Below, piece by piece: positions 2,878-63,177 of a DNA stretch of 64,000 nt. The DNA comes from Malacoraja senta (Eukaryota). Both the position numbers and the translations under genes were made by a program. The stretch lies in NCBI GenBank assembly GCA_038087875.1, contig CM075991.1:3906001-3970000 (forward strand). Reading direction: 5' to 3'. The stretch's first letter is position 1, and each line of letters begins with the position of its first letter. The notes below the pieces were generated by a model. The model searched no databases and had not been told where the DNA came from. It saw only the letters and a program-made list of their open reading frames with translations.

Positions 2878-5477
2878 AGTGGCTGCAAGAAGGACCTGCA
2901 GATGCTGGTTTAAATTGAAGATAGAAAGAAAAAGCTGAAGTAACTCAGCGGGACAGACAGCATCTCTGGAGAGAAGGAATTGGTGACGTTTCGGGCCAAG
3001 ACCCTTCTTCAGACTGCAATGGTTAGGTATGGGTCGGATCACTCTCTAACCCTGCTATCGCATGCGTTTGCCACAAGAGGCCCCCCTTTCGCCATTCTTT
3101 CATTATCTGCATGGGAGCCGTGTAATTTGTCAATTCACCAGTGACCTGTTGATGTCAGTTAAATAAAATGTGGAGTTGAATGTTAAAAACACTTAAGCAT
3201 AGGATTGCAATGCAATTAAATTCAAAGATAGACAATAGTGCTGGAGTAGTTCAGTGGGTCAGGCAGCATGTCTAGAGAAAAAGGATGATGGGCGATGTTT
3301 TGGGTCGGGGCACTTCTTCAGACTCAGACTACCCATCTTTTTTCTCCAGAGATACTGCCTGACCCACTGAGTTACTGCAGCACTTTGTGTCTATCTTTTC
3401 TATAAAATAACATCTACAGTTCTTTTTTTCTACAGTGCAGTTGAATTATTCTGCAAAGTCATGTTCACTGGTCTCTAATCAAGCAAGCTTGAGCTGAGAC
3501 CTTCAAGCTTTGAGCCTGACCAGCATAGTTTTTCCATTGGTGATAAATGAGCTGCTGCTGTTGGAAGAGCAAGCAGAATTTAATGTGAACTAACCCACTG
3601 AGGATGAAATACTCAGACTGGGAGCCGTTCTGAAACATTACCATGCCGTACTCTTGCCCCCATTGCAATCCAAACGCAGAGGTGAGGTGAAACAAACTTC
3701 CCTGTACCACAGAGTGACACAGCATGGGCCCTTTGGTCACCACAGAGTGACAATGCATGGGTCCTTTGGTCCACTGATTCTTTGACCATCAAACATCCCA
3801 TTTACACTCATCCCAGTTTCTTCACCCATTGTCATCAAGTTGCCACAGATTCTATATCTTATCTATACCTTTGGAGAATTGACAGTGGCCTATTAACCTA
3901 TAGGCACATCTTTGGTCCAGTATGTGGGAGGAAGCCGGAGAAGGCTGAAAGAAACCCTTGCAGTTACAGGGGGAACATGTAAATTCCACAGAAATGGTGC
4001 TGGAGGTTAGGATTGATCAAGGTTGCTGGGGCTTAGTGTTCTGAGGGACCTGATTATTCTTGAACCTGGAGTTAACACGCAGAAACAACAAGCATTTGTG
4101 ATAGTAGACTGTATGTTGGCTTTTATTGCAAAGAGAATTAGAGTACAAGAGTAGAGGCAATATTCCCCCCTTCAGCCTTTAGGACCATGAAAGACTTGGT
4201 CAATGTCCTCAGAAAAAAAAATGTCCACTGCCTAAGTCTCATGGTGCAGGTGCCACCTACATCTGCTCTGCCCCAACTTTTAGTCTCTTTGCGTCCCATT
4301 ACCATCATCATCTCTTTTGTGTCATTCAATATCTTGTGCTTTCCACCAAGAGGCATCTCAGACCTTCCATTTTGATCGAAGATAGACACAAAAAGCCGGA
4401 GTAACTCAGCGGGACAGGCAGCATCTCTGGAGAGAAGGAATGGCTGACGTTTCGGGTCAAGACCCTTCTTCAGACCCCTTCTTCCCATCTTCTCTTTTGC
4501 TGCATCCTTAAAATCAGTCCTTCTAAATGTTAACGCTGTTTCTATCTCTGCAGATGATGCCTGATCCCTTTGGCTTTATGATTTATTTCAGACTTGTTGC
4601 AGCCTTTTGATTTTCACTTTAAAGAATGTTATGCTGTTCAGGGAGAAAATAGCAATGGAGAAAATAGTACTGGGTGTGGTCATGTTGATCAAAACACCAT
4701 CCAGCATGTTAAAAAAGAATGGCTTTTAGGCTAGTGTCAATGAAACGATGATATTGGCAGTTGGGAATCCATGCAGACATCAGGTTTTTGGAGATCAAAC
4801 TTGTTTACAGCTGAAGAAAAAGAATCTGAATCTTGTTTCTTGGACAAGTGGAAAATTGGACATAGACCAATTTAACAACTTTAGAGGTTGGACAATCTGT
4901 TTTGAAACAACTCCAAACTGACTATATTTTTTCTATTATATGTATTTCATGCATTTTATGTGCTGGATTCATTGCTTCGGCTTGGTGTTTGTGCTGGCAC
5001 CGTATCTCCCAACTGGTCTGAATAACTGATACGTGACAACATGCTTCAGTCAGCATCTGGTTATTTCATATTCATGTTGGTCATAGTACAAAGGCTGGTT
5101 TCTCAGCCTCTCCATAAATCAAGAGCCATGAAGGGAAGGATATGAGAGTGTTTGAAGTGTCCTGGCTTTTGAGCTGAGCATTATGTGGTCTACATTTTCT
5201 AATTCATGCACCGAGTGTGGATATGGCTGGTAATGCTGGCATGTATTGCCACCCCCTTAAACCTCCTTGGCAGCCTATTGTGAAATTGTGATGGACCTGC
5301 CTTGGAGAACCACTGTAGCCCATGTAGTGAAATGGTTATACCTTTGGATGGGAATTTCTAGGACTTAATGAAATTACTACATGATTGGTGTAAATGTGTG
5401 CTTGATGGTTAGTATTGACTCAGTGTGCTAAAGGGGTGCTTTCTATGATGTATGTCTTTATCTGCTGAGTAACCGAT

Positions 5478-5713
5478 GATAGACACAAAATGCTGGAGTA
5501 ACTCAGCAGAACAGGCAGCATCAATGGATAGAAGGAATGTGTGATGTTTTGGGCGAGACCCTTCTTCAGACAGAAGACAGGTCTGAAGAAGGGTCTCGAC
5601 CCGAAACGTCACCCATTCCTTCTATCCAGAGATGCTTCCTGTTCCGCTGAGTTACTCCAGCATTTTGTGTTTATCTTCAGTATAAACTAGCATCTGCAGT
5701 TCCTTCCTACACA
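5478..5713. mobile_element. Penelope terminal-repeat inverted pair (representative of dozens of copies)
   Basis: Arms 5478-5571 and 5581-5675 are reverse complements. Similar pairs at about 3228-3432, 6700-6955, 21392-21590, 27399-27613, 28675-28901, 29790-30023, 33314-33518, 40088-40300, 45584-45768 and 62068-62272. Confidence 0.8.
5579..5615 (+). ncRNA. Minimal type I hammerhead ribozyme-like motif in the Penelope repeat
   Basis: GGT-CTGAAGA-A-GGGT(CTCG)ACCC-GAA-ACGT-C-ACC: conserved core, stem II, palindromic stem III and a short stem I. Confidence 0.6.
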
Positions 5714-6419
5714 TTTGATCTGCTGGGCAATCCTGGTCTCACCAGTCACCGATATTCCCCTTGCTCTACATATACCACTACCAAGCCTCCACCCTCCCCC
5801 CAGACATTCTCTGCTAGTTAAATATAATCTTTAACTTAGCAAGTTTTTCAACCTGAAAAATTAATGCTGATTCTTTTTTCCCCCACAAATACTGCCTGAC
5901 TTATGGAGTGTGTTTTTTTTTTAGCATTTTTGTTTTTTATTATAAAACCACATTTGCTTCTTTTTTTTAAATTTTGTGGTTCACCCAGCAGTTTGTCTTG
6001 TGGTTAGTCCAAGAAAATATTTATATTATTTACTGTACAATGTATGTGTCATTCTGGAAGGGACTGAAAAAGGAGAGGCAACGTGTACACCTTGTCTGAC
6101 AGAAGAGATCAGAGAGTTCATCTAATTAAAGTAGATTTGATAGAATACAATTTTTTGGAACATGAGATGTGAATCATGCGTTTTGGAACAGTGTCGGCAT
6201 TTTGTTAAACTTGAAGCAACAGAGCAGTAAAACATGACATTATATTACTGATAGAATAAATAGGGTTTCAAAACATGATTTGATTTTTATTATTGCTCTA
6301 AAGTTTATATGGGAGAAGACACATGTACTTTAAACACTGAAAGGGTTTGAAGCCCCCCTCCCCATAAAAGGGGGCAATGAGATATATGCTTGTGTAAATT
6401 TTGGACTGGATTTCATAAC

Positions 6420-9630: not shown

Positions 9631-12600
9631 TCAGTATCCCGTACCTGCCTTCTCTCCATACCCCCTGATCCCTTTAGCCACAAGGGCCACATCCAACTCC
9701 CTCTTAAATATAGCCAATGAACTGGCCTCAACTACCCTCTGTGGCAGAGAGTTCCAGAGATTCACCACTCTCTGTGTGAAAAAGGGTTTTCTCATCTCGG
9801 TCCTAAAGGATTTCCCCTCTATCCTTAAGCTGTGACCCCTTGTCCTGGACTTCCCCAACATCGGGAACAATCTTCCTGCATCTAACCTGTCCAACCCCTT
9901 GAGAATTTTGTAAGTTTCTATAAGATCCCCCCTCAATCTCCTAAATTCTAGCGAGTACAAGCCAAGACTATCCAGTCTTTCTTCATATGAAAGTCCTGAC
10001 ATCCCAGGAATCAGTCTGGTGAACCTTCTCTGCACTCTCTCTATGGCAATAATGTCTTTCCTCAGATTTGGAGACCAAAACTGTACGCAATACTCCAGGT
10101 GTGGTCTCACCAAGACCCTGTACAACTGCAGTAGAACCTCCCTGCTCCTATACTCAAATCCTTTTGCTATGAATGCTAACATACCATTCGCTTTCTTCAC
10201 TGCCTGCTGCACCTGCATGCCTACTTTCAATGACTGGTGTACCATGACACCCAGGTCTCGTTGCATCTCCCCTTTTACTAATCGGCCACCATTTAGATAA
10301 TAGTCTGCTTTCCTGTTTTTGCCACCAAAGTGGATAACCTCACATTTATCCACATTATACTGCATCTGCCATGCATTTGCCCACTCACCCAACCTATCCA
10401 AGTCACCTTGCAGCATCCTAGCATCCTCCTCACAGCTGACATTGCCCCCCAGCTTAGTGTCATCCGCAAACTTGGAGATGTTGCATTCAATTCCCTCATC
10501 CAAATCATTAATAGATATTGTAAATAGCTGGGGTCCCAGCACTGAGCCTTGCGGTACCCCACTAGTCACTGCCTGCCATTCTGAAAAGGACCCGTTTACT
10601 CCTACTCTTTGCTTCCTGTTTGCCAGCCAGTTCTCTATCCACATCAATACTGAACCCCCAATACCGTGTGCTTTAAGTTTGTATACTAATCTCTTATGTG
10701 GGACCTTGTCGAAAGCCTTCTGAAAGTCCAGATATAACACATCCACTGGTTCTCCCCTATCCACTCTACTAGTTACATCCTCAAAAAATTCTATAAGATT
10801 CGTCAGACATGATTTACCTTTCGTAAATCCATGCTGACTTTGTCCATTGATTTCACCACTTTTCAAATGTGCTGCTATCCCATCTTTAATAACTGACTAG
10901 CAGTTTCCCCACTACCGATGTTAGACTAACTGGTCTGTAATTCCCCGTTTTCTCTCTCCCTCCCTTTTTAAAAAATGGGGTTACATTAGCTACCCTCCAA
11001 TCCTCAGGAACTACTCCAGAATCTAAAGAGTTTAGAAAAATTATCACTAATGCATCCACTATATCTGGAGCTACTTCCTTAAGTAGTCTGGGATGCAGCC
11101 TATCTGGCCCTGGGGATTTATCGGCCTTTAATCCATTCAATTTACCTAACACCACTTCCCGGCTCACCTGGATTTCACTCAGTTCCTCCATCTCCTTTGA
11201 CCTTGCTATTTCCGGCAGATTATTTATGTCTTCCTTAGTGAAGACGAAACCAAAGTACTTATTCAATTGGTCCGCCATGTCCTTATTCCCCATGATCAAT
11301 TCACCTGTTTCTGACTGCAAGGGACCTACATTTGTTTTAACTAATCTCTTTCTCTTCACATATCTATAAAAACTTTTGCAGTCAGTTTTAATGTTCCCTG
11401 CCAGTTTTCTTTCATAATCTGTTTTCCCTTTCCTAATTAAGCCCTTTGTCCTCCTCTGCTGGTCTCTGAATTTCTCCCATTCCTCTGGTCGGCTGCTTTT
11501 TCTGGCTAATTTGTACGCTTCATCTTTTGCTTTGATGCTATCCTTGATTTCCCTTGTTATCCACGGATGCACTACCTTCCCTGATTTATTCTTTTGCCAA
11601 ACTAGGATGAACAATTTTTGTAGTTCATCCATGTAGTCTTTAAATGCCTTCCATTGCATATCCACCGTCAACCCTTTAAGAATTAATCGCCAGTCAATCT
11701 TGGCCAATTCACGTCTCATACCCTCAAAGTTACCTTTCTTTAAGTTCAGAACCATTGTTTCTGAATTAACCATGTCACTCTCCATCCTAATGAAGAACTC
11801 AACCATATTATGGTCACTCTTGCCCAAGGGGCCACGTACAACAAGACTGTTAACTAACCCTTCCTCATTACTCAATACCCAGTCTAGAATAGCCTGCTCT
11901 CTCGTTGGTTCCTCTACATGTTGGTTTAGAAAACTATCCCGCATACATTCCAAGAAATCCTCTTCCTCAGCACCCCTGCCAATTTGATTCACCCAATCTA
12001 TATGTGGATTGAAGTCACCCATTATAACTGTTTTACCTTTGTTGCACGCATTTCTAATTTCCTGTTTGATGCCATCCCCAACTTCACTACTACTGTTAGG
12101 TGGCCTGTACACAACACCCACTATCGTTTTCTGCCCCTTAGTGTTTCGCAGCTCTACCCATATCGATTCCACATCCTCCAAGCTAATGTTCTTCCTTTCC
12201 ATTGCGTTAATCTCCTCTCTAACCAGCAACGCTACCCCACCTCCTTTTCCTTTCTGTCTATCCTGAATATTGAATATCCCTGGATGTTCAGCTCCCAGCC
12301 TTGGTCTCCCTGAAGCCATGTCTCCGTGATCCCAACTATATCATAATCATTAATAGCTATCTGCACATTCAACTCATCTACCTTATTACGAATGCTCCTT
12401 GCATTGAGACACAAATCCTTCAGGCTTGTTTTTACAACGCTCTTACCCCTTATACAATTTTGTTGAAAAGTGGCCCTGTTTGATTTTTGCCCTGGATTTG
12501 TCTGCCTGCCACTTTTACTTTTCACCTTGCTACCTATTGCTTTTACCCTCATTTTACACCCCTCTGTCTCTCTGCTCACACATTTAAGAAACCCAACACC

Positions 12601-12726
12601 TCTTATTCTCTGTTTATTATCTTTTTCTTCTTTCCCCCCTACATGTTGGGTCTGAGTGCTTTCCTTCTCTGCCTCCTGCCTCACACACCTTCTACTAGCT
12701 TTTTCTATTTGAGTCCCTCCCCCCAA
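9631..12726 (-). pseudogene. CR1 ORF2: APE endonuclease plus reverse transcriptase
   Basis: LNARSI, GITETW, GVVYRPP, MGDFN, SDH (APE); NYRPVSLTS, QHGF, LDFQKAFD, QGSVLGP, FADD (RT). Frameshifts near 12260 and 10880. Confidence 0.92.
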
Positions 12727-12731
12727 CCGTT

Positions 12732-13833
12732 CTAGTTTAAAGTCTCCCCAGTAGCCTTTGCAAATCTCCCCGCCAGGATATTGGTCCCCCTCGGGTTCAA
12801 GTGCAACTCGTCCTTTTTGTACAGGTCACACCTTCCCCAAAAGAGGTCCCAATGATCCAGAAATTTGAATCCCTGCCCTCTGCACCAGTCCTTCAGCCAC
12901 GCATTTATCCTCCACCTCGCTCCATTCCTACTCTCACTGTCGCGTGGTACAGGCAGTAATCCCGAAATTGTTACCTTTGCGGTCCTTCTTTTTAACTCTC
13001 CTCCTAACTCCCTAAATTCTCCTTTCAGGACCTCTTCTCTTTTTCTACCTATGTCATTGGTACCTCTATGTACCACGACCTCTGGCTCCTCTCCCTCCCA
13101 TTTCAGGATATCTTGGACACGTTCAGACACATCCCAGACCCTGGCACCCGGGAGGCAAACTACCATCCGGGTCTCCCGACTGCGTCCACAGAATCGCCTG
13201 TCTGACCCCCTAACTATAGAGTCCCCTATTACTAATGCCCTCCTCTTCTTTTCCTTACCCTTCTGAGCAACAGGACCAGTCTCTGTACCGGAGGCCCGGC
13301 CGCTGTCGCTACCCCCAGGTAGGCTGTCCTCCCCCAACAGTACTCAAACAGGAATACTTATTGTCAAGGTGTACAGCCACCGGGGTACTCTCTAGTCCCT
13401 GCCTGTGCCCCTTGCCCCTCCTAACCGTGACCCACTTGCCTGCCTCCTGTGGTCTTGGAGTGACCACCTCTCTGTAACTCCTCTCAATGACTTCCTCGCT
13501 CTCCCTGACCAGACGGAGGTCATCGAGCTGCTGCTCCAGGTTCCTAATACGGTCCCTTAGGAGCCCCATCTCGACGCACCTGGCGCAGATGTGGACGTCT
13601 GGAAGGCTATCAGATTCCTTGACCTCCCACATCTGACATCCAGAACAGTAAACTGCCCTGGCCCTCATACTCCCCTTACCTAGGATACAATACATCTGAC
13701 ATCCAGAACAGTAAACTGCCCTGGCCCTCATACTCCCCTTACCTAGGATACAATACAAAGTACAGTACAGTACAATACAATCAGCAGGGATCCGACTCCC
13801 AATCAGCTGCTCCCTCTTGTCTGCTTCCACCAA
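12732..13833 (-). pseudogene. CR1 ORF1: zinc finger/leucine zipper plus SGNH esterase
   Basis: CSGC..HICARC and LEQQLDDL in ORF 13309-13833; LVIGDSIVRG, GTNDI and DELHLN in ORF 12732-13337; frameshift at the C run 13331-13335. Confidence 0.88.
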
Positions 13834-14272: not shown

Positions 14273-14332
14273 GTGTCTTGTGTGTGTGTGTTGTGTCTGT
14301 GTGTGTGTCTGTGTGTCTGTGTGTATGTCTGT

Positions 14333-14399
<67 letters not shown>

Positions 14400-14657
14400 T
14401 GTGTGTATGTGTCTGTGTCTGTGTCTGTGTCTCTGTGTGTGTCAGTGTCAGTGTCAGTGTCTGTGTGTGTCTGTGTGTCTGTGTCCGTGTGCGTGTTGTG
14501 TATGTGTGTGTGTGTCTGTGTCCGTGTGTGTGTGTGTCTGTGTGTCTGTGTGTGTGTGTGTGTGTGTGTCTGTGTCTGTGTCTGTGTCCGTGTGTGTGTG
14601 TGTGTGTCTGTGTGTGTCTGTGTCCATGTGTGTGTCTGTGCCTGTGTGTCTGTGTCC

Positions 14658-14696
<39 letters not shown>

Positions 14697-14723
14697 TGTG
14701 TCCGCGTGTGTGTGTCTGTGTCC

Positions 14724-14778
<55 letters not shown>

Positions 14779-14834
14779 TGTCTGTCTGTGTCTGTGTCTC
14801 TGTGTCTCTGTGTCTCTGTGTGAGAGAGAGAGAG
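14273..14834. repeat. Compound (GT)n/(GTGTCT)n microsatellite ending in (GA)n
   Basis: About 560 bp, seen directly; it generates spurious VC/HT ORFs. Confidence 0.98.
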
Positions 14835-14929
14835 ATCCAACTGTATGACTTCTGCCCCCTTTTCTGCGACCTCTTCCCCGATGCCATGTTCCGCCTTCAG
14901 AACACATCACATCTGGAAAGTGTTTTTGT

Positions 14930-15040
14930 GGGGACGGGGGGCAGTTTTGAGGGAATCCCTTTGCCGATTGGTTGCTGCTGCTCACTGCATTACATCATCG
15001 GCCGGAGCAGCAGAGAGGTGCGGCTGGCAGGGCGGGGGAA
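14930..15040 (+). promoter_or_regulatory. Putative LOXL2 promoter
   Basis: CpG-richer non-repeat stretch with GGGAATCCC (14951-14959), an inverted CCAAT box (ATTGG 14967-14971), ATTACATCA (14989-14997) and a GC box (GGGCGGGG ~15030), upstream of a strong splice donor. Confidence 0.5.
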
Positions 15041-15206
15041 AGTGACAGGACACTGGGAGATCGATCCAGCAGTGGGTTGGAGCATCTGAACTGGGCGAAG
15101 TGTGTAGAAGAGGCAGCCGAACTGTACCAGCTCTCTGAATTAACCAGAGACCAGGACCTCAGTCGAGAGAGAGCGAGCGAGCGAACTGCTGGATAACGGT
15201 ATCCCA
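15000..15206 (+). other. LOXL2: Putative LOXL2 non-coding exon 1 (start approximate)
   Basis: ATG-free GC-rich segment ending in CCCA|GTAAGT (donor at 15207). The first coding exon has its own acceptor, so an upstream UTR exon is needed, as in mammalian LOXL2. Confidence 0.55.
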
Positions 15207-18200
15207 GTAAGTATATGGAGGGGGGTCTATCTGTGAAGTTAATCCATATGCTAGAAACTTTCACTGTTCTTAACATAATAGTGTCGGTGCAAGCTGGAGA
15301 TGGAAATACATTTGCATACGGGGTGATAACGACTGCAACCATTTCAGCGATAACTTCAAGGCGTGAAAATATTAAGGGGGATGGCGGCGAAAGTTGAAGA
15401 TGTGTGCGGGATGGGGGTTGGGGGATGAGATGGGGGCATTATTAACTTTATTGCAGCGGCTCTCCGTGTGTTCGGTTTGACCTATTGAACCTTAGCCACG
15501 TCCTGTTACATTCGTCGCCCCCCATAGCTCTCGACCTAACCGCTCCCCACTCCAGGCTGCAAGTGAGAATTTCATTGTTCCATCTGGGACATATGGCGAT
15601 TAAATTCTCTCGACTATCGACTGCGGGAGGAAAAGTTGCAGGAAGGAGAGGACTCCGGCTGTAAATCTGAGACGGTTACTTTGCTCGCATTCCGACAAAG
15701 AACCGCAAAACCAAAAAAAACCCACACAATTCGAGGTAGATAACGTTCTCTTAAATACTATACGATAGAACTTTATTTATCCCAGGAGGGAAATTGATCT
15801 GTCAACAGCCATAAAAACACAAAATACATGAAACATGAAATCTTTTTTTTTTTTAAACTGGGGCACCCAGTCCTTCAAGGGAATTGAAGAGCAGCCTCGT
15901 TACCTACAGAGGAGGGAGAATGTGGAACTGGCTCACTGCTGCGAGATTTTCAAATTTCGAGAGTCTTCAATTGTCATTTATACCGACGCGGTACAATTAC
16001 ATTCTGAAGATAGACTGGAGTAACTCAGCGGGTCAGGCTGCATCTCTGGAGAAAAACGTATAGATGACGTTTCGGCAGCAGGATCTCAATCCCAACCTAT
16101 TCCTTTTCTCCAGAGATCCTGCCTGACCCGCTAAATTGTAGGGGAAATTTGAGTAAAGACGGGGGAGAGAACAGAATGCAGTTTTGCTGATGAAAGTCGG
16201 GCAAAGTCATCGACCACCAATGAATGCTGTCTGGTTTTCTCTCCACAGACACCCTCTAACTTGCTGGGTTTTATTTCACATTTTTCGTTCGTGTTTCAGA
16301 TTCTTTACGCCTGCAGGATTTTGCTCTTGTAATTGGATTCTGTGCTATGAGCACTGTGGTTTTTTCTGTGCAGCTTTTTGGACGTGGAAAGCAGATTTTG
16401 GCTAAAAAGCGATGCCTTGAATCTCACAATTATGCAGCATCTGGCGATTTTTCGGGTCAGGACTCCAGACTGATCTGAAGTCGCCCATCCATGTCCTCCT
16501 GAGATATTGCCTGGCCCGCTGAGTTACTCCAGCACTTTGCACTTTACTCAAGATTCCAGCATCTGTGTTTCATTGTGTCTCCTCGAATCTCACTAGAACT
16601 GCACAATATTGCACTAAATTCGGTTTAGTTTAGTTTATTATCACATGTACAGTGGTGCAGAGAAAAGCTTTTGTTTCCAGCTAGCCTGACAATACACGAT
16701 TACAATCGGGCCAACCGCAGTGTACTGATACATGATAAAGGGAATTATGTGAATAATGTTTAGTGCAAGATAAAGTACAGGAAATGCCGACCAAAGGTAG
16801 TCCAGGGGTCTTCAATAAGGTAGAGAGTGGTTCAGGACCCTCTGTCTAGTTGTTGTAGGGTGGTTCAGTGATAACTGCTGGGGAGAAACTGTCAATTAAT
16901 CTGGGCGGGGGGGGGGGGGTGTTTTCGCACTTTGTACCTCTTGCCCGATGGGAGAGACAACAGACAATAGATGCAGGAGAGATTGCCTGGCCCTTCCAGC
17001 CAGCACCGCCATTCAATGTGATCATGGCTGATCATCCCCAATCAGTACCCCGTTCCTGCCTTCTCCCCATATCCCCCGACTCCGCTATTTTTAAGAGCCC
17101 TATCTAGCTCTGTCTTGAAAGCATCCAGAGAACCTGCCTCCACCAGGCAGAGAAGTGGGAGTGGTCAGGGTGCAACTCTTCCTTGATCAAGCTGAAAATA
17201 AACACCAAAAGCTGGAGTAACTCAGCGGGACAGGCAGCATCTCTGGAGAGAAGGAATGGGTGACGTTCCGGGTCGAGACACTTCTTCAGATCAAGCTGGT
17301 CGCCTTGTGGAAAATACTTTAGAGCCATATTCTTTAAGTTCATCCAAGGGGCAGCAGCTAGCTCAATTCCTCTTGCTCTGTCAGTATTTATCATGTCCCT
17401 TGAGGCTGACAACACTGTGTGTCCTGCTAGTCTCTGATTTATTAGGAAGCTAAATTGCCCCTTTGCAAATGTCTCACTTTGCTAATATTTTGTCAGCTTC
17501 TGAGCACTTAACTTTTTTCCCTCTGTGCCAGGAAAAACCTGGATTTGAGTTCCATGCACAGAGATGACCACGTAAATCTGATTCATCAGATGCAATACTA
17601 AGGGAATGTTACACAATCAGAGGAGCAGTTACAAATAACTGTCCATATTCTTGTCATAAGAACAAAAGAAGGCCATTCGGACCATTGAGTCTACTCCATC
17701 ACTCAATCATGGCTGATCTATCTTTCCCTCTCAACCCCATTCTACTGCCTTCTCCCCATAACCCTTGACGCCAGTACCCTGTCAATCTCCACCCTATAAA
17801 TACAAAATGACTTGGCCTCCACAGCCATCTGTGGTAATCAAATTCCACAGTTTCACCACTCTCTGAGTAAAGAAATCCCTCCTCATCTCCTTTTTTAAGG
17901 TATGTCCTTTTATTTTGAAGTCATGCCCTTTGGTTCTAGGCTTTGCCCCTAGTGGAAACATCCTCTCATATCCACTCTATCTGGCTTTTCACTATTCGAT
18001 AGAGTGGAGGAATAGTGAAAGGTTGTTTAGAGGAGAGGTTACATTGAGGTCTCGGACAGATGTCAAAGGTCTCAAGAAGGGTCTCGACCCGAAATGTCAC
18101 CTATCCATGTTTAAGAAAGAACTGCAGATGCTGCCAAAATCGAAGGTAGACACAAAATGCTGGAAAAACTCAGCAGCTATGGAGAGAAGGAATTAGCAGC

Positions 18201-19235
18201 GTTTCAGGTCTGCAGAACTCTGTGGATCTTGAAGTGACTGAGAGATAGTCCATGTGAATTTTCTTTTTAGACAAAGCATTTATAACCCATCCCTGTCTGA
18301 AGAAGGGTCTCGACCCGAAACGTCACCAATTCCTTATCTCCATAGATGCTGCCCCATCCGCTGAGTTTCTCCAGCATTTTATGTCACCTATCCATGTTCT
18401 CCAGAGATGCTGCCTGACCTGCTGAGTTACTCCAGCACTTTGTGTCATTTTGTGTCCAAGGCACGTTTCTGATTGTGGTGAGGGAAGTAAATACTGTGGA
18501 ATGCTTGGATTCTGTTCTGCTCGACAAAACTAGCACTGAGACATGTTAGCTGTTTTTTGAATACTACTATTTATGGCATATTTCTGTGTGTAAGAGAGGC
18601 TGCTACATTTGAAACATTACGCTACTGTCTGCACTTCAGAATTGCCTTATTGACTGTCAGGTAATTTTGACATGTCTTGAGATTATAACCAGCACCACAA
18701 ATTCTTTCAAGTTCAGTAATCCAATGCCAGAAATCTTCTACTGACAGAAACATGTTTCAGCATTCTTTATCTGTTTGCGTGGAACAGCTGCAGAACTCTG
18801 TGGATCTTGAAGTGATTGAGAGATAGTCCATGTGAATTTTCTTTTTAGACAAAGCATTTATAACCCATCCCTGTCTGAAGAAGGGTCTCGACCCGAAACG
18901 TCACCCGTTCCTTCTCTCAAGAGACGCTGCCTGTCCTGCTAAGTTACTCGAGCTTTTTGTGTCTATCTTCAGTTTAAACAAGCATCTGCAGTTCCCTCCT
19001 ACATATAACCCATCCCTCGTTGCCTTTGAGAGGGTGGTGATGTATCTTCAGCTTGAACTGTTGCAGTCCTCCTGGTGCAGGTGCTCCCACCATGACAATG
19101 AAAAATAAACCTGCAGATGGCAAGATCGAACTGGATCGCTGAGCTGTGCAATATCAGCACTAACTGCTGTGTCACTGTGGTGGTGCACAACTGACAATGG
19201 GCATTCTAGGCTAGTGGAAACTCCTGAGTAAAACA

Positions 19236-19780
19236 TACAATATACAATATGTTGGTGAGGCCACGTTTAGAGTATTGTGTTCAGTTTTGGTCACCCTGTT
19301 GTAGGAACAATGTTAAGCTGGAAAAAGTGCAGAGAACATTTATGTGGATGTTGCCAGGACTTAAGGGCCTGAGCTACAGAGAGAGGTTGAGCAGGCCAGG
19401 ACTTTATTCCTTGGAGCGCAGGAGGATGAGGGGTGATCTTATGGAGGTGTACACGATCATGAGAGGAATAGATAGGGTAAATGCACAGTCTTTTACCTAA
19501 AGTAGGGGACTCAAGAACCAGAGGACATAGTTTTAAGGTGAGAGGAGAACGATTTAATAGGACCCTTAGGTACAACATGTTATACCCATGGTGGTAGGTA
19601 TATGGAATGAACAGCCAGAGGAGATAGTTGAGGCAGGTACTATCACAACGTTTAGAAAACATTTGGACATGAACATAGATAGTAGAGGTTTAGAGCGATA
19701 TGGGCCAAACCCAGGCAGGCGGGACTAGTGTCGATGGGGCATATTGGTTGGCAAAGGTCTGTTTCCATGCTGTATGACTC
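19236..19780 (+). mobile_element. Degenerate CR1/HER1 3' fragment
   Basis: LVRPRLEYCVQFWSP..ERRRMRGDL followed by an HER1-type 3' end. Confidence 0.8.
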
Positions 19781-21000
19781 TGTTGAATATAACACATGGA
19801 GCCAGAGAGTTAAGAATGGGTTACCTTTTGGTTTTTTAGCTTTAATCTTTATACTCAATTGCATTTTAAAAGATTGTTTGTAGCAGGGCACATTATACAT
19901 TGCAGAAAGGCTCCTGATTTTCATTTGGATGTTGAATGTGTCCCTGTGAAGTGTTGGCCTGTTCCTGCCTTGCTCCACCCATCTAATGATCATCCCTCGT
20001 CAAACGTCAACAACAGAGGACGTTTGTGCCACAGCCACGCATCCCAAGGTAATTCCCGGGAATGCTGACAGGCGAGATTTGACGCTGACTCACGAAAGGA
20101 CATGCCACGAAACATTTGGGCAGAGATGCAGTATTAAGGAGGATTTTAAAGAGCGAAAAGTAGACGGAGGAGCATGTGTGAGGGATTTACAGAGGAACTT
20201 CCAGGGATTGAACACTTTACAGCTGAGGCAGTAATACAACGATGTAAACATTTGGCCGTGCAAGAGGCCAGAACTGGCTGAGACTGTATCTTTTGCAGGC
20301 CTGTACTGCTGGAGGTTATAACTGAAACAGCAGGACCATGGGCAGATATAAGGAAAGATGCAAACTTTAGTTTACTTTAGAGATACAGCACGGAAACAGG
20401 CCCTTCGGCCCACTGAGTCCGCACTGAACAGCGATTCCCGTATCCTACACACTCGGGACAATTTACAAGTCTTACTGAAGTCAATTAATCTACAAAACCG
20501 ATACGTCTTTGGAGTGTGGGAGTAAACCGGTGTACCTGGAGAAAACCCATGCAGGTCACGGGGAGAACGTACAAACTCCGTAAAGACAGCACCCGTAGTC
20601 AGGATCAAACCCGGGTCTCTGGCGCTGTAACCTCTGCACTACATGAAGAGTGGTATTTTACAGCAAGGTGTCCTCTGTTGCAAAGTAAATTATTAATTTC
20701 TCATGGTGAATCTGATCAATAGAAATACAAAAAATAATATTGGGTCGCGGTGCAAGAAGACCGGAAAAATAATGGAGCAATTTCATTTGGATAGTCTGTT
20801 GGGTGAACCAGCTTTGTTGAAATCACACACAATCAAAGGCAAAGATTTTTTTTTTGTGTGAAACAGGGGCTGATAATGAAATCAGTGTTTTCAGCTAAAC
20901 TTGTTTTTATTTCACTGGTAGGAGACTAGCACTGACCTCTGGACCTCGAGGGCAAGGAGCTGAGTTTAAGCTTCTTCGCTGCCCAGTGAAGTAGCGTAGA

Positions 21001-21301
21001 ATGAAAGCCATCCTTTGCATCCTCCATCGCTCGTTGGTCCTGGTGGTCTTCCTCTGCTTCTTGGAGCTACATGGCTTGGTGCAGGACGACGCCGTGAAGC
21101 AAGTCCCCAGGATTCAAGCGCGGCTGGCAGGCAGGAGGAAGAAAGGGAATGAGGGGCGGATCGAGGTCCACTACAACGGCGAGTGGGGCACGGTGTGTGA
21201 TGATGACTTCTCCATTGCAACGGCGCATGTGATATGTAAGGAACTGGGCTTCATTCAAGCGGAAAGCTGGGTGCCTGGTGCCAAGTATGGCCGTGGAAAA
21301 G
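21001..21301 (+). CDS. LOXL2: LOXL2 first coding exon (exon starts 20922): signal peptide and SRCR1 N-half
   Basis: Acceptor AG at 20920-20921; in-frame TAG at 20992-20994 before ATG 21001. Hydrophobic leader, then RLAG..EGRIEVHYNGEWGTVCDDDFS..VICKELGF. Donor G|GTAAGG. Lies next to ENTPD4 in the same orientation, as in human. Confidence 0.9.
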
Positions 21302-21654
21302 GTAAGGAAAATTAACATTGCATTATGTCTATTGGAATGGAGTGCTGTAAGGTCTCTGGAGATCATTTGCTGATGCCATCCAGTTCTACCTGTAGGAAGA
21401 AACTGCAGATACTGGTTTATACTGAAGATAGATGCAAAATGCTGGAGTAACTTAGCGGGTTAGGCAACATCTCTGGAGAAAAGGAATAGGTGACATAGGA
21501 ATAGAGACCCTTTTTCAGACCCAAAATGTCACCTATTCCTTTTCTCCAGAGATGCAGCCTGACCCGTCGAGTTACTCCAACATTTTGTGTCCATCCAGTA
21601 CTATGTCAATTTGGTGGCAGGTCGTTGTGTGCCAAGCTGAAAAGAGCGCAGTGA

Positions 21655-22327
21655 GTCTGTTGCCAAGACATGGGCTTGTGCTATAGGGAGATGTTGGGCA
21701 GGCTAGGACATTATTCCTTGGAGCGCAGGAAGATGAATGGCAATATTATAGAGATCTATGAGATCATGAGGGGAATAAACAGGGTTAATGCACAGAGTCT
21801 TTTACCTAGAGTATTGTGAATCAAGGATCAAGGGGCATAGATTTAAGATGAGAGTGGAAAGATTTAATAGGACCCTAATGGGTAACATTTTCACACCGAT
21901 GGTAGTTGGTATATGGAATGAGCTGCCAGAGGAGGTAGTTGAGGCAGGTACTATAACAACATTTCAAATAAATTTGGACAGGTACATGGATAGGAAAGGG
22001 CTAGAGCAACCTGGGTTAAATATATCCCCAGGGGATAAATTTCGCCTACTCGCGGTAAATTTGTTGATTCTGGATTTGTACATATATTTTCTCATTGACT
22101 GACTGTGTTTGGTTCTGTTCATCATTTGTTGTTCATAAATAAGTGAAAAAACATTGTTATGTGCTGTTAAAGTTGCCAGGGGTAAACGGGTCAAAAATGG
22201 TTGGGAACCCCTGGGCTAGAGGGGTATGGGTCAAATGCAGGCAGGTGGGACCAATGTAGACGGACCATCTTGGTTGGCATGGGGAAGTTGGGCTGAAGGG
22301 CCTGTTTCTATGCTGAATGACTCCATG
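21655..22327 (+). mobile_element. Degenerate CR1/HER1 3' fragment interrupted by a hAT MITE
   Basis: GIWNELPEEVVEAG..LDRYMDRKGLE; the LINE resumes after 22221. Confidence 0.75.
22007..22213. mobile_element. hAT/Charlie-type MITE
   Basis: 8-bp TSD GGCTAGAG (21999-22006 and 22214-22221); right end GGTTGGGAACCCCTG; left TIR partly deleted. Confidence 0.75.
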
Positions 22328-22766
22328 ACAATTCTGTCCACTTGGTCAGTTTCTTTGAGGCAGTTTTGAACTTCTCCCATAAATATGCTTTCTTGCCCAA
22401 ACCTTATTTTTCTAGCTTCTAAAGATCTGCCAGCCTTAGTTTTGAATGTGCTCCATGACTGAGCATTATGGGTTTCCAGGGAATTTGAAAGTTTCACAAT
22501 TCTCTGATGGAAAAAAAATCTTCCGCATCTCAGTCCACATGAGCTGACCCATATGCTATCATTCCTAGTGCTAGACTCATTGCCAAGCCTGTCATCTCAC
22601 AAAGAATTTAATGATTCAACAAGGTCACCTCTTATGCTCTGAACCTTTATGGGCTCCCACTATTCAAAATGTCATCGCAGTACAACCTTCTCAACCCAGA
22701 ATCTTTTCAAAAGTTGTCCTAGGGAAGCATACCATTTAAGAAGACCAAAATGTATGCAATTTTCCC

Positions 22767-23637
22767 ATAGATACATAGATACATAGAAAATAGGTGCAGG
22801 AGTAGGCCATTCGGCCCTTCGAGCCTGCACCATTTATTGTCAAGGTGTACAGCCACCGGGGTACTCTCTAGTCCCTGCCTGTGCCCCTTGCCTCTCCCAA
22901 CCGTGATCCACTTGCCTGCCTCCTGTGGTGTTGGAGTGACCACATCCCTGTAACTCCTCTCAATGACTTCCTCGCTCTCCCTGACCAGACGGAGGTCATC
23001 GAGCTGCGTCTCCAGGTTCCTAATACGGTCCATTAGGAGCCCCATCTCGATACACCTGGCGCAGATGTGGACGTCTGGAGGGCTATCAGACTCCATGACT
23101 TCCCACATCTGACATCCAGGACAGTAAACTGCCCTGGCCCTCATACTCCCCTTACCCTGGATACAATACATCTGACATCCAGAACAGTAAACTGCCCTGG
23201 CCCTCATACTCCCCTTACCCTGGATACAATACATCTGACATCCAGAACAGTAAACTGCCCTGGCCCTCATACTCCCCTTACCCTGGATACAATACATCTG
23301 ACATCCAGAACAGTAAACTGCCCTGGCCCTCATACTCCCCTTACCCTGGATACAATACATCTGACATCCAGAACAGTAAACTGCGCTGGCCCTCATACTC
23401 CCCTTACCCTGGATACAATACAAAACAAACTGCTACAATACAGTACAATCAGCAGGGATCTGACTCCCAATCAGCTGCTCCCTCTTGTCTGCTTCCACCA
23501 ATCAGTGGCTTCCTCAAACCCACTTGTTTTTGAAGTGGAACTTGGAACGTTGCAGATTTCGGCCCCGCGCGCCTCTTTAAATCCTACCGCTCGGGTGTAG
23601 CTCCTCCCTCTGCGACCTCTCCAACGGCTCTCGGGCC
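22767..23637 (-). mobile_element. Internally deleted CR1 derivative (5' UTR and ORF1 N-terminus fused to the 3' terminus)
   Basis: 22834-23637 closely matches 13358-13940 of the full copy; 22767-22833 is the CR1 3' hairpin plus (CTATGTAT)n tail. Confidence 0.85.
23105..23421. repeat. 63-bp tandem repeat, 5 copies
   Basis: Units start at 23105, 23168, 23231, 23294 and 23357 and encode MYCIQGKGSMRARAVYCSGCQ on the minus strand; 2 copies occur at 13629-13754. Confidence 0.95.
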
Positions 23638-24640
23638 ATGTCAAAGCTACTCGGAGATATGACTCTTAAATAGACATCACCTCTTTTTTCTACCTCCCCC
23701 CCGCTTTCCTTCCTCTTCCCTATGACAAAGGTCTACTGAAGAACCCCGAGCTCAGGATTAGATGAATAGTTATGCTTTATAACTTACGGACCTATCTCCA
23801 AAGTTGTAAATTACTCCAATCTTCTTTATCATGCCTTTTTTTAAATTTCTCACTTTCTATCTATAACCTAAATAGAAGCAGAGTTAATATACAATAGAAG
23901 CAGAGTTAATATACAACTGATAAAGGAGGCCCACTATTATTTTGATAGCTGGACTCCCACCTATTAGCAACGTAGGATTGATATATAAGAAATGTTTGTA
24001 TTATGATATGCACATGCTTCTAATAAAAATATATATATTTTTAAAAGAACTCGTTAATCTCTCATTAACCTTGTTGTCTTGCTTGCCTTGGGAAAGCAGT
24101 CTGTATAATCAAGGGCCACTCAGACCCCAGTCATTCCCTCTTCTCCCCTTTCCAATCAGTCACATTAAACAAAAGCTTGAAAGCGTGAACCACCTCATTC
24201 AAGAACAGTTTCTTCCCTGCTGTTATTAGACTCTTGAATGGACCTCTCGTGTACTAGCCATGCATTCCCGATCTTCCAACCTACCTCGTTGTGGCCTTTG
24301 CACTTTTTTTTATCTGTACTTTCTCTGAAGCTACATATCTGCACTCTGTTTATTTTCTACTTTGCATTACCTGATATACTCATGTATGGTATGAATTGCC
24401 TGGATAGCTCGCAAAACAATGTTTTTCACTGTAGCTTCACATGACAATAATAAATTATTAACAATACCAGCTTTACTATCCAACCTTAAGCCAAAAGGAG
24501 ATGGTTGATGGGGTTTTGCTGTTGATACCCACATGTTATTTCTCCCTTTACCTGGTATCCTCCAGTTCCATAGAATGGAATATAAAGCATAAAATATAGA
24601 ACTGTGTGTTAACTCATCTTGATACTTGATGAATCCCTTG

Positions 24641-25000
24641 TGTAGGAAGGAACTGCAGATGCAGGTTTAAACCAACGACAGACACAAAATACCGGAGAAA
24701 CTCAGCGGGACAGGCAGCATCTCTGGAGAGAAAGAATGGCTGCTGTTTTGGGTCGAGACCCTTCTTCAGGCTGATGTCAGGGGAGAGGGAGATACATAGA
24801 TAAGAAAGTGTAAGGTGTGAAAGCAGGACAAAGGGGAAAGAAACAAAGCAAACAAAGGTAAAATGTACTCGGACACAGTCAGACTGGTCGGAGAACTGGG
24901 AAGGGGGAGAGATGGAGAGAGGGGGAAAGCAAGGGCTACTTGAAATTGGATACGTCAATGTTTATACCGCTGGGGTGTAAGCTGCCTAAGTGAAATATGA
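24641..25000 (-). mobile_element. 5'-truncated Penelope-like element
   Basis: IFHLGSLHPSGINIDVSNFK* (24936-24998), a pyrimidine-rich UTR, then the same terminal repeat. Confidence 0.8.
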
Positions 25001-26097
25001 ACACCCCTTTTGGGGTGTTGAATCCCCTTTAGACAAGATAATTGCACTGGGAAAAGAGCATAATTGCTTACATTTATTGGAATGCAATAAAAATTCAAGT
25101 CCAGTTGGCGTGCATAGTGTCAGCAAATAATCAAAAGGAGGGTTTATTTAACGTGCTGCATCAGTAATAGTATATAGACACAAAGTGCTGGAGTAATTCA
25201 GCAGGGCAGGCAGCATCTCTGGAGAAAAAGGATAGGTGACGTTTCGGGTCGGGACTCTTCTTCAGATAATTGCAGCCTGTAATCCCAATTTGACTTAGCG
25301 GGAACTAAGGAAGGACACAGTGGGGTAGCGGTAGAGTTGCTGTCTTACAGCACCAGAGACCCGGGTTAGATCCTGACTACAGATGCTGTCTGTACAGAGT
25401 TTGTATGTTCTCCCTGTGGTCGCATGGGTTTTCTCCGGATGCTCCAGATGCTCCGGTTTCCCTCCACATTCTAAAGACGTGCAGATTTGTAGGTTAATTG
25501 ACTTCTGTAAATTGTCTGTAGTGTGTAGGGGAGAACCTGTATGGGTGATTGCTGGTTGGCGAGGACTCGGTGGACCGAAGGACCTGTTTCCACTCTCTAG
25601 GACTATACACATAGAGAGTGGAAATAAGCCCTTTGGCCCAGCTTTCCCACACTGACCAACATGCCCCATCAACACTAGTTTCCCTTCCATGCTAGGCCCG
25701 TAACCTCTAAACCTATCCTACCCATGTCCATGTCCAAATGTATCTAAAATGTTATGATGGTACCTGCCTCCACTACCTCCTCTGACACCTCCTTCCACAT
25801 AACCACCATTCTTTGTGTAAAACGTTGTGTCTGAACTAAGACAACTATTAAATTACACAAGTTGTTAGTGCAACTGAGTGACTGGGTTTGGGTTTAATTA
25901 CCGAGATGATTGGGTAATACCCAAGGAAAATTAATTGCCTCCTAGTCTTGCCCATAAGCACAGTTGTGCTCACAGCATCTCAGAGGGAGATGTGGTTGAG
26001 CTTTGGATGGGCTGACCCTGTGGTATTTTGGGCACCTTTTGTCCCTGGCTCTGCGTAACCAGGGGGGCCAGTACTGATGGTTTATTGTTGTCCGCAG

Positions 26098-26272
26098 ACC
26101 GTATTTGGATGGATAACATCCGGTGCACTGGACACGAGACCACCCTCGCTGCTTGCAGTTTCAACGGCTGGGGATCACTAACTGCAAACACTCAGAAGAC
26201 GTGGGAGTGGTGTGCAACGAAAAGAGAATACCTGGCTTCAAATTCACCAACACTGTCATCAATGATATAGAG
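26098..26272 (+). CDS. LOXL2: LOXL2 exon 3 (SRCR1 C-half), with a 1-bp deletion as given
   Basis: Acceptor tccgcAG, donor GAG|GTGGGC. RIWMDNIRCTGHETTLAACSFNGW is in one frame and GITNCKHSEDVGVVCNEKRIPGFKFTNTVINDIE in another; the switch is at the G run 26170-26173. Confidence 0.88.
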
Positions 26273-26722
26273 GTGGGCCAATTGCTGTGTTTCCCACTAG
26301 TTCTGTTGAATGAGCAGAAGTAACTTCAGTGTCGATATTTACAGAAGAAATTTGGGTTCTTTGGTTGAGGAGGCATTAAAGTTGAGCTTCCCACTATTTC
26401 ATGGAATGGGGGTATATGTTAAATTGGTCGCATGACTTTCTCTTCCATGTTACAAGGGTGTGAGTGATTTCAGGAGGACCATATATGGCCACCTGTGCAA
26501 ACAAATCCTTTGTGATCTGAATAGTTCATAGGCTACGTCATTGGATCAATATCTGTACCATTACTTTTCGAAAGCCCCAGAGCTCTTTGCAAACAACATC
26601 TCTCAACTAAACTGAAACAAACCAAAGTAAAGTAAAGTAAACTAAACTAAACATGCTTGTAAGAGGAAATGACAGTGGGATTATACACAGAAAGCTCCCA
26701 AATACAACTTGTACTTTCTAAG

Positions 26723-27073
26723 GTAGACAAAAGTGCTGGAGAAACTCAGCAGGTGCAGCAGCATCTATGGAGCGAAGGAAATAGGCAAAGTTTCGGGCCG
26801 AAACCCTTCTTCAGACTGATGTAGGTTGGGGGGGGAATGGGGAGAAGAAAGGAAAAAGGAAGAGGAGGAGCCCGAGGGCTGAGGGAGAGCTGAGAAGGGG
26901 AGGAGACAGCAAAGGCTACTGGAAATTGGTGAATTCAATGTTTATGCCACTAGGGTGCTGACTGCCCAAGCGGAATATGAGGTGTTGCTCCTCCAATTTC
27001 CGGTGGTGCTCACTCTGGCCATGGAGGAGGCCCAGGACAGAGAGGCTGATTCGGAATGGAAGGGGGAGTTGAA
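26723..27073 (-). mobile_element. 5'-truncated Penelope-like element (GIY-YIG C-terminus plus terminal repeat)
   Basis: Minus strand reads FNSPFHSES/LSVLGLLHGQSEHHRKLEEQHLIFRLGSQHPSGINIEFTNFQ* (stop at 26916), then a hammerhead-like motif. Perfect 12-bp TSD GTACTTTCTAAG (26711-26722 and 27074-27085). Confidence 0.85.
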
Positions 27074-40700: not shown

Positions 40701-40741
40701 CTGGATTGCTAACCATTTTAACTCCACTTCCCTCTCCCATA

Positions 40742-41462
40742 CTGGGTGTCATGGTACACCAGTCATTGAAAGTAGGCATGCAGGTGCAGCAGGCAGTGAA
40801 GAAAGCGAATGGTATGTTAGCATTCATAGCAAAAGGATTTGAGTATAGGAGCAGGGAAGTTCTACTGCAGTTGTACAGGGTCTTGGTGAGACCACACCTG
40901 GAGTATTGCATACAGTTTTGGTCTCCAAATCTGAGGAAAGACATTCTTGCCATAGAGGGAGTACAGAGAAGGTTCACCAGACTGATTCCTGGGATGTCAG
41001 GACTTTCATATGAAGAAAGACTGGATAGATTCGGCTTGTACTCGCTAGAATTTAGAAGATTGAGGGGGGATCTTATAGAAACTTACAAAATTCTTAAGGG
41101 GTTGGACAGGCTGGATGTAGGAAGATTGTTCCCGATGTTGGGGAAGTCCAGGACAAGGGGTCACAGTTTAAGGATAAAGGGGAAATCTTTTAGGACCGAG
41201 ATGAGAAAAACATTTTTCACACAGAGAGTGGTGAATCTCTGTAATTCTCTGCCACAGAAGGTAGTTGAGGCCAGTTCATTGGCTATATTTAAGAGGGAGT
41301 TAGATGTGGCCCTTGTGGCTAAAGGGATCAGGGGGTATGGTGAGAAGGCAGGTACAGGATACTGAGTTGGATGATCAGCCATGATCATATTGAATGGCGG
41401 TGCAGGCTCGAAGGGCCTAATGGCCTACTCCTGCACATATTTTCTATGTTTCTATGTTTCTA
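40742..41462 (+). mobile_element. 5'-truncated CR1 (same family as 9542-14004)
   Basis: LGVMVHQSLKVG..RPHLEYC..GYGEKAGTGY, then a (TTTCTATG)n tail. Confidence 0.92.
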
Positions 41463-42079
41463 TACTGACCTTTCTGTCGTGCCTCCTCCTTTGTCATTGT
41501 CAGTCCACAAGCAAATTGGAGGAATAGCACCTCATATGGACACAAAATGGTGGAGTAACTCAGCGGGTCAGGCAGCATCTCTAGAGAAAACGAATAGGTG
41601 ATGTTTCAAGTCGGAACCCTTCTTCAGATTAAGTGAACTACACTTTATTCGACTCTTAACACTAAGGAACACACCATTTGCGGTGCTCATCTCCTTGATC
41701 CACGACTTACCTAATTATTTACTTCATCAAACATCGGCTGGCCATTTCACACTTGGTGGTGATATGTTATTTTGTGGTGTTCTGTCCTTATAACGCAGCT
41801 ATATTAAGAACAATCTCAGATTTATAGTGTCTTTCGTGACTTTAGGACATCTCAAAGCTCTTTGCAACTTCAAGTAATTTTTGAAATGTTGCCACTAATA
41901 TAATTATAGGGCCAAGATCAAATGCTCAGACCAATGGGATTGATGCTATCCAATTATCAATTGTTGTTAAGGGCTGAGTACTTGGTCGGACACTGGTCCA
42001 CTATTCTCCAAAACTGTGGCTGTAGAAGGCAGACGAGGCAGCCAATTTAACATCTTATTCAAATCAAGGTCGAGTGTCA

Positions 42080-63169: not shown

Positions 63170-63177
63170 GTGAGGCC

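Follow-up and report, generated by a model that had tools for sequence, protein, structure and literature searches.

Introduction

Minimal hammerhead ribozymes have been known from the ends of Penelope-like elements since 2014, as have their truncated copies, of which the coelacanth and Xenopus genomes each contain thousands (Cervera and de la Pena 2014, PMC4209133). The consensus published in that study comprises a CUGANGA box, one extra base, a helix II closed by G10.1-C11.1, a GAAA box, a palindrome and an NUH site. Its supplement gives the extra base as the rule and lists a two-pair helix I, the published minimum, for D. virilis and Culex; the extra A of the CChMVd hammerhead is cited there from De la Pena and Flores 2001. 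The Penelope intron of D. virilis ends at helix I (PMC4209133), and both this intron and a promoter are described.

EN+ Penelope-like elements are described as inserting together with an inverted, 5'-truncated copy, with the tail confined to one end (Craig et al. 2021, PMC8557442), and a CX2-5CxxC linker between the reverse transcriptase (RT) and the endonuclease (EN) is given as a feature of the Neptune clade (PMC8557442). In the green anole, the protein of the PAc element nicks and extends both target strands, and the tail is bounded by two internal positions at which reverse transcription starts (Frangieh et al. 2024, PMC11167929). Retrozymes have been reported in one chondrichthyan genome (Li, Clavereau and Pollet 2026, preprint, 10.64898/2026.07.22.740005).

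The present analysis adds a very short hammerhead variant from cartilaginous fishes, carried by a repeat that occupies about 9% of the 64-kb stretch of DNA analysed here (the window). The repeat copies, termed stubs, are very probably insertions of a GIY-YIG Penelope-like element that were dead on arrival, with the hammerhead as a passenger from the source pseudo-LTR (pLTR).

A dense family of two lengths

All counts refer to the 64-kb window, and positions within the repeat are numbered from the C of CUGAAGA as +1. A profile built from 31 seed copies found 60 copies in the window, 29 on the plus and 31 on the minus strand, with 6,012 bases in sum. The reversed window, used as control, gave no copy with the same profile. 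The copies group into 43 loci, at a density of about one copy per kilobase.

The original prediction of a repeat of roughly 130 bp in dozens of copies holds for the repeat itself, but not for a single length. The 3' ends fall into two classes, at positions 91-101 in 26 of the 60 copies and at 126-136 in another 17, corresponding to lengths of about 95 and about 130 nt. The difference of about 35 nt is the Penelope 'tail'. The hammerhead region is kept in 34 of the 60 copies and is intact (both boxes, four stem II pairs, palindrome and UH site) in 10 of these 34, so that the expectation of many dead copies was correct. Two subfamilies are distinguished. Subfamily A is diverged and includes 28 core-bearing copies, 25 of which are full-length and average 86% identity to their majority sequence. 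Subfamily B is younger, with six core-bearing copies at 95% mean identity to the majority.

A well-delimited example of a solo stub lies in sense orientation in LOXL2 intron 1 (18873-19003, plus strand). It is tailed, has an intact core at 18875, and a 14-bp target duplication abuts both of its ends. A second sense stub of intron 1 with an intact core (18295-18385, plus strand) lies within a duplication of the 18790-18960 region. The surrounding stretch, 18108-18398, is nested. An older stub there is interrupted by three pieces, a subfamily B stub, some 85 bases duplicated from 18790-18872 and a subfamily A stub, with a duplication of about 18 bases at the borders of the insert. By its sequence, this arrangement looks like the Penelope-driven copying of neighbouring DNA known from rotifers.

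No head-to-tail array of the unit occurs among the 25 tandem repeat rows of the window, and a tandem retrozyme with head-to-tail hammerhead units was accordingly rejected. Pattern scans of public viral, metagenome and prokaryote genome collections gave no match.

The hammerhead motif

The flagged copy contains an intact minimal hammerhead on the plus strand at 5583-5610, formed by CUGAAGA, an extra A, a 4-bp stem II, GAAA and the palindromic ACGU, with a predicted cut after C5610. The motif at this position, its GGGT-CTCG-ACCC at 5591, the C of GUC at 5610 and the further stems claimed at 8587 and 28818 are all present in the sequence as first described. Stem I had been called short, which it is: 0-4 contiguous pairs are found overall and 1-3 in the 10 intact copies. 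The flagged copy has a stem I of 3 bp, the third pair being supplied by the spacer next to it, whereas the native stem I has 2 bp. Both the two-pair helix I and the extra base are published, and neither is therefore unusual here.

When the published consensus was sought at the spacing of the stubs, 16 exact matches were obtained, against none in 100 shuffles. Stem III has ACGU as the majority sequence and no loop, which is the dimer type; its C is kept in 28 of 34 copies and its G in 21 of 34, with losses mostly due to CpG decay. Helix II has 4 bp, and 86% of its cells are paired across the aligned copies.

The suggestion that stem II varies while staying paired did not survive as covariation. 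None of the four pairs changes on both sides, and the differences consist of loop changes, U-A to U.G replacements and CpG decay. The covariation score was 0.113, against 0.117 after shuffling, in an alignment of 32 of the 34 core-bearing copies (the indel copies at 5569 and 9082 were left out). Covariation is not to be expected among neutral copies so closely related, and in PMC4209133 it serves as support for the motif and not as its descriptor. A search with Rfam covariance models was likewise negative for the hammerhead, with none among 44 matches at E up to 10.

Non-CpG core positions vary less than those downstream (10/310 against 145/1703, p 0.0007); three short copies were dropped from these counts and subfamily-diagnostic columns were counted apart. 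The low value is partly circular, because copies were chosen by their core match, and the core is also A-rich. The catalytic G of GAAA lies in a CpG and decays like other CpGs (7/31 against 14/74, p 0.79). We read this pattern, as far as aligned copies can indicate it, as selection on the source elements followed by neutral decay in place.

Link to a GIY-YIG Penelope-like element

Two long copies, both on the minus strand, join the repeat to a GIY-YIG C-terminus, as had been predicted. The subfamily B copy (26717-27047) contains the GIY-YIG C-terminus at 27047-26922, a stop codon, a pyrimidine-rich 3' UTR ending in CAG, and the hammerhead region, whose core begins at 26814 and has lost the stem III palindrome. 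The subfamily A copy (24639-25001) retains a shorter piece, the last 21 GIY-YIG codons (25001-24939), followed by a pyrimidine-rich 3' UTR, a decayed hammerhead with its core starting at 24769, and the tail. In both, the hammerhead is located in the pLTR, sense to the GIY-YIG open reading frame and downstream of its end. In protein comparisons, the segment 27047-26922 shares 76% identity with one skate protein at its end, and 52% with proteins of whale shark and zebra shark, again at their ends. The 51-residue window fragment by itself gave no Pfam match; P0122, whose C-terminus is 52% identical to it, passes the Pfam GIY-YIG cut-off. Together with the fit to the published consensus, this link bears out the identification of the repeats as Penelope-like ends with a minimal type I hammerhead motif.

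Five long relatives were compared. RT matches are present in four of them (P0122, P0124, P0125 and P0127) and GIY-YIG matches in all five, two above the curated cut-off. All five also align with a CX4CxxC linker before the endonuclease, so that the shark relatives carry the cysteine linker; the matching part is missing from the window. No RT fragment of the stub family occurs in the 64 kb, and assignment to the Neptune clade consequently rests on these relatives. Taken together, the alignments indicate that the source was probably a GIY-YIG Penelope-like element of cartilaginous fishes belonging to the Neptune clade.

A decayed GIY-YIG fragment with weak matches lies on the plus strand in two pieces (40663-40743 and 41474-41536), split by a CR1-type insertion. 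It is abutted by an inverted pLTR stub on the minus strand (41536-41628), forming an internal inversion. The zebra-shark protein P0123 reads through, within its last 20 residues, into SLMKGLRPKRQ, which matches what the hammerhead region encodes in frame when the variable core base is U. By this protein sequence, the motif may be shared across sharks.

Inverted pairs, tails and target duplications

The stretch 5478-5713, initially treated as one repeat, does contain the repeat but consists of two copies placed head to head. The left arm (5471-5571, minus strand) is a stub without tail, and its hammerhead is broken, with stem II one base short and the GAAA box changed. A 9-nt spacer (5572-5580) separates the two 5' ends and forms the loop of the fold-back hairpin. 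The right arm (5581-5713, plus strand) is a stub with a tail of about 35 nt at about 5680-5713. An 8-bp target-site duplication flanks the pair on the plus strand at 5460-5467 and 5718-5725.

Head-to-head pairs of this type make up 15 of the 43 loci, 12 of them downstream of 15207. A motif search located the tail on exactly one arm in 12 of the 15 pairs, on neither arm in three and on both arms in none. Target duplications of 8-15 bp occur near both ends at 9 of 43 loci, compared with 13 of 500 random windows. Among pairs of subfamily B, a young one at 27399-27613 has a 10-bp target duplication, an intact core on the minus arm and the tail on the plus arm, and another at 28673-28902 has intact cores on both arms (28801, minus; 28810, plus) and its tail on the minus arm. 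A further pair, 90 bases into LOXL2 intron 2 (21391-21595), has its arms joined via a 3-nt overlap, as expected from snap-back priming. Short overlaps are seen at some junctions (21518, 33404) and are consistent with snap-back of the cDNA end. Pair junctions differ between loci, which implies that the palindromes form at each insertion.

This anatomy, an inverted truncated copy with one tailed end, is the textbook Penelope layout. Inverted Penelope-like copies are ascribed to self-priming in the literature, in which no report of twin priming in such elements was found.

The pairs could also be taken for MITEs or microRNA precursors, since they form long hairpins and Rfam microRNA models match several of them at E below 1e-5. 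All of these matches are nevertheless far below the gathering scores. The arms are unequal with a one-sided tail, the junctions vary, the duplications range from 8 to 15 bp, and the same unit also occurs solo or joined to GIY-YIG sequence. On the unequal arms, the variable junctions and duplications and the sub-threshold scores, we rejected this barely conceivable reading. Across the window, the weak Rfam microRNA matches correspond to fold-backs and microsatellites.

The 5' ends of the stubs

Alignments start between -4 and +2 in 36 of the 60 copies, a range limited by the end of the reference. Duplications or partner arms pin this common 5' limit at some loci only: the 14-bp duplication fixes the start at 18873 to -1, two nucleotides ahead of the core, and -1 is likewise where the two arms of the flagged pair begin. 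The long copies have this limit directly after the pyrimidine tract and CAG. One possibility is a splice acceptor, since the D. virilis intron ends at helix I (PMC4209133); another is a transcription start at TCAGT, a sequence that we assume to be initiator-like. If spliced RNA had been copied, a shared upstream 'exon 1' would be expected; 31 of the 34 core-bearing stubs had no match to the upstream regions of the two long copies, and similarity above shuffles was seen in three. Even between the two long copies, upstream similarity stays at shuffle level, which makes a failed upstream match weak evidence. In one run from a related species, loose ends before the 5' limit have a pyrimidine-rich consensus (116 contigs, agreement 0.42), and longer copies may therefore be common elsewhere.

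Scarcity of upstream sequence bears on whether the stubs form a non-autonomous family of their own, SINE-like or a monomeric retrozyme, whose own short RNA is copied by Penelope proteins. Fixed ends, the very high density, the presence of at least two subfamilies (86% and 95% mean identity) and recognisable upstream element sequence in just 3 of 34 core-bearing copies all suit such a family, and retrozymes are reported as pLTR-derived (10.64898/2026.07.22.740005). It is opposed by the lack of head-to-tail arrays, by the GIY-YIG-joined long copy in each subfamily, and by locus-specific junctions, which mean that palindromes arise per insertion. We consider a separate family unlikely, with the qualification that a short transcript from the pLTR of the autonomous element would look alike, so that the two readings overlap.

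A minority of arms starts further inside. Among the 30 pair arms, 13 start downstream of +2, and two start exactly at the predicted cut site (+29). These are the tailed plus arm of the pair at 3216-3425, which starts at 3331, and the minus arm of the pair at 51378-51541, which starts at 51450. A third arm, at 16095, was considered as a cut-site start and is better read as a deletion. The probability of at least two arms at the cut-site base is near 0.03 by hand arithmetic under a crude null (uniform over about 45 positions). These starts may be a lead and are treated as such. That the stubs amount to a fossil record of template RNA 5' ends, with a main class 1-4 nt before the core and a minor class at the cut site, is a rather doubtful proposition. 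The main-class start, whether start site or splice acceptor, would also account for the 2-bp stem I.

The large number of insertions is of practical use: from their ends, the sites of RT initiation, the 5' ends of templates and any ribozyme cuts made in vivo could be mapped. With a copy in about every kilobase, a genome-wide 5'-end test has great power. A peak at the cut-site base, if real across the genome, would count as evidence for cleavage in vivo by a metazoan Penelope minimal hammerhead and for reverse transcription of the cut product. Such a product was sought in the anole RNA-seq and not seen (PMC11167929).

Proposed origin of the stubs

The dead-on-arrival reading builds on directly visible features, which are the sequence itself, its continuity with the endonuclease C-terminus, the pair of 3' end classes, the one-tailed inverted pairs and the target duplications. 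The remaining steps are proposed by analogy with the anole protein. Measured from the usual 5' limit of the template, located just before the core, the two RT start sites would lie only about 95 and 130 nt downstream. What sets this limit may be transcription initiation, splicing at an acceptor or a hard stop. RT start sites so close to the template 5' limit would yield short cDNAs. Two such cDNAs, or one snapping back on itself, could then join head to head and produce the palindromic pairs, while priming on both strands would leave a tail on only one of the two arms. As part of the source element, the motif probably acts as a weak ribozyme dependent on the protein and on a second copy, and copies would decay neutrally after insertion.

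Predicted folding and activity of inserted copies

Folding predictions speak against activity at the flagged locus. The pair folds with 99 pairs at -165.8 kcal/mol (z -22.9) and a stem II probability of 0. If transcribed, the flagged copy would be locked in this 99-bp hairpin and is thus unlikely to cut. Even for the intact arm alone, a hairpin that pairs 3-12 with 29-40 is predicted to be preferred (0.99) over stem II, and the same alternative outcompetes stem II in several other intact copies. The folding models ignore tertiary contacts and protein help. These competing folds agree with reports of low in vitro activity of minimal hammerhead dimers (PMC4209133), of an anole PAc ribozyme that does not cut without its protein (PMC11167929), and of Xenopus dimers, eight of nine of which were inactive when tested (10.64898/2026.07.22.740005). 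Paired copies, which fold into long duplexes that bury the core, are more likely to be double-stranded RNA substrates than ribozymes.

The motif might already be a non-catalytic relic in the source elements, retained for another role such as that of a promoter, splice or protein-binding signal. Among published lengths, those of stem I (2 bp) and stem II (4 bp) are near the minimum (PMC4209133), the alternative hairpin beats stem II in the flagged and several intact copies, and covariation is absent. Both subfamilies nonetheless keep all catalytic positions, the extra nucleotide, G10.1-C11.1, the palindrome and the UH site, and changes are limited to tolerated places (GUC or GUU, U-A or U.G). 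A 2-bp helix I is also present in published Penelope hammerheads (PMC4209133), and the fold models leave tertiary contacts and protein out of account. A relic in the source has some chance of being right, albeit a minor one; a weak, protein-assisted ribozyme in the source remains the preferred reading.

Genomic setting in the ENTPD4-like gene and LOXL2 region

By its protein relatives, the window derives from a cartilaginous fish, probably a skate or ray. It begins near the end of a gene that we call ENTPD4-like from its translation. Its last coding exon lies at about 290-680 on the plus strand, with AATAAA signals at 1245 and 1300, so that exon and signals span about 290-1305. The second gene is LOXL2, as the original prediction stated. 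The protein identities bear this out: P0054 is the closest LOXL2 relative in the protein search, with 83-97% identity over the main exon matches, and is itself nearer to LOXL2 (63-65% identity, four proteins) than to LOXL4 (54-55%, four proteins) or LOXL3 (50-51%, three proteins). The database labels of two proteins are odd, with a LOXL2 protein under a marine bacterium and a shark LOXL2 named ENTPD4 (P0053 and P0062).

Contigs of related species, presumed to be RNA, indicate a non-coding, CpG-rich first exon of LOXL2 at about 15079-15206 (plus strand), directly followed by a GTAAGT donor. In run X8, 15079-15207 and 20942-21302 lie on a single contig; run X5 has coverage from 15123 on, at a depth equal to that of its exon 2 contig. 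This comparison spanned 14860-22600 and used contigs whose RNA status is a guess; summed contig depth over repeat copies reflects genome-wide loci and was left out of the evidence. Protein matches and contigs place further exons on the plus strand at 20922-21302, 26100-26281, about 54790-54999, 57044-57259 and 62983-63171, the coding part of exon 2 running from the ATG at 21001 to 21302. In exon 26100-26281, a run of G at 26171-26176 is one base short relative to the closest relative and shifts the frame, which is probably an assembly error. CCAAT-like and GC boxes at about 14966-15040 mark the likely LOXL2 promoter, and an interrupted TG microsatellite of 540 bases lies directly upstream of it (14279-14822).

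The flagged locus lies between the two genes, some 4 kb beyond the poly(A) signals of the ENTPD4-like gene. As the exon at 15079-15207 is joined to exon 2 in a contig, the first exon seen is located about 9.4 kb downstream of the flagged copy. Unless LOXL2 has a further exon upstream, the proposal that the motifs are transcribed inside the LOXL2 pre-mRNA is therefore not supported for the flagged copy, but it applies to the 45 of 60 copies downstream of 15207. Only three of these 45 are both sense and intact, one of them within a fold-back pair. Downstream of the first exon there is no strand bias (23 sense, 22 antisense) and no depletion of intact sense copies, with 3 of 12 core-bearing copies intact on each strand.

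The solo sense intact copies at 18297 and 18875 are the candidates for working ribozymes that cut the LOXL2 pre-mRNA as dimers and affect its processing. Both cores are perfect, and the two copies follow each other in sense orientation within intron 1 at a distance of 578 nt; this spacing makes an in-cis dimer geometrically possible, and minimal hammerhead dimers are known to have low activity in vitro (PMC4209133). Against such a role, stem I has 2 bp, the core boxes are predicted to be paired in a 300-nt context (unpaired probability 0.02-0.05), and neither sense nor intact copies are depleted in LOXL2. The protein dependence of the anole ribozyme (PMC11167929) and the eight inactive dimers of nine in Xenopus (10.64898/2026.07.22.740005) argue in the same direction, and we regard activity of these copies in LOXL2 as very unlikely. 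Passenger motifs in inserted stubs remain the preferred explanation. A consequence for LOXL2 may instead come from the 12 intronic fold-back pairs, with 30-96 predicted pairs each, which predict long double-stranded RNA in the pre-mRNA and thereby possible A-to-I editing and false microRNA calls.

Other repeats share the window. A long CR1/L2-type LINE occupies 9631-13833 on the minus strand, with AP endonuclease and RT frames recognised by Pfam and, upstream, what we take to be an esterase-like ORF1 region. Shorter LINE pieces occur at 22719-23432, 40750-41365, 43747-44190, 47200-47646 and 49731-50150. Two copies of the first LINE frame contain a nearly perfect in-frame 63-bp unit, present twice at 13629-13757 and five times at 23105-23422, that encodes a cysteine-pair motif. 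A tRNA-derived SINE, presumably akin to the shark HE1 family, has many copies (2130-2400, 2600-2870, 25295-25700 and others), often beside Penelope stubs.

Comparison with known systems

No cartilaginous fish was found in the examined part of the supplementary alignment of PMC4209133, nor by a term search of that file. No description of such hammerhead stubs from cartilaginous fishes was found in the literature, and repeat databases such as Repbase may list the family. The nearest described motifs are the minimal hammerheads in the pLTRs of metazoan Penelope-like elements (PMC4209133), with which the stubs share the motif boxes, a palindromic CG without loop 3, and the NUH site. The elements are also alike in the location of the motif in a pLTR after the GIY-YIG end and in the predominance of single truncated copies, and opposite-strand neighbours are mentioned in that source. 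Differences lie in helix length: helix II has 4 bp here compared with 7-8 bp in Schistosoma families, and helix I has 2 bp compared with 4-5 bp (PMC4209133).

EN+ elements of the Neptune clade (PMC8557442; inverted pLTRs also in Arkhipova et al. 2013, PMC3846280) resemble the present family in the GIY-YIG domain, the inverted truncated copies and the target duplications, and their tail of 30-40 bp on one end corresponds to the tail of about 35 nt here. Unlike in the Neptune descriptions, nearly all insertions here consist of the 95-135-nt end, and a full-length copy is absent from the window. The Poseidon element PAc of the green anole (PMC11167929) shares the hammerhead at the junction of pLTR and ORF. 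Its RT start sites also bound a tail, about 110-120 nt downstream, both target strands are extended, and its ribozyme needs the protein. PAc belongs to a different clade, and the mechanism shown in the anole is inferred for the present family. Non-LTR retrozymes (10.64898/2026.07.22.740005) are, like the stubs, non-coding, pLTR-derived and equipped with a type I hammerhead. They are defined by at least two head-to-tail hammerhead units, whereas the stubs stand solo or head to head. Judged by the sequence features tested here, the stubs are a member of the pLTR-borne minimal hammerheads of EN+ Penelope-like elements.
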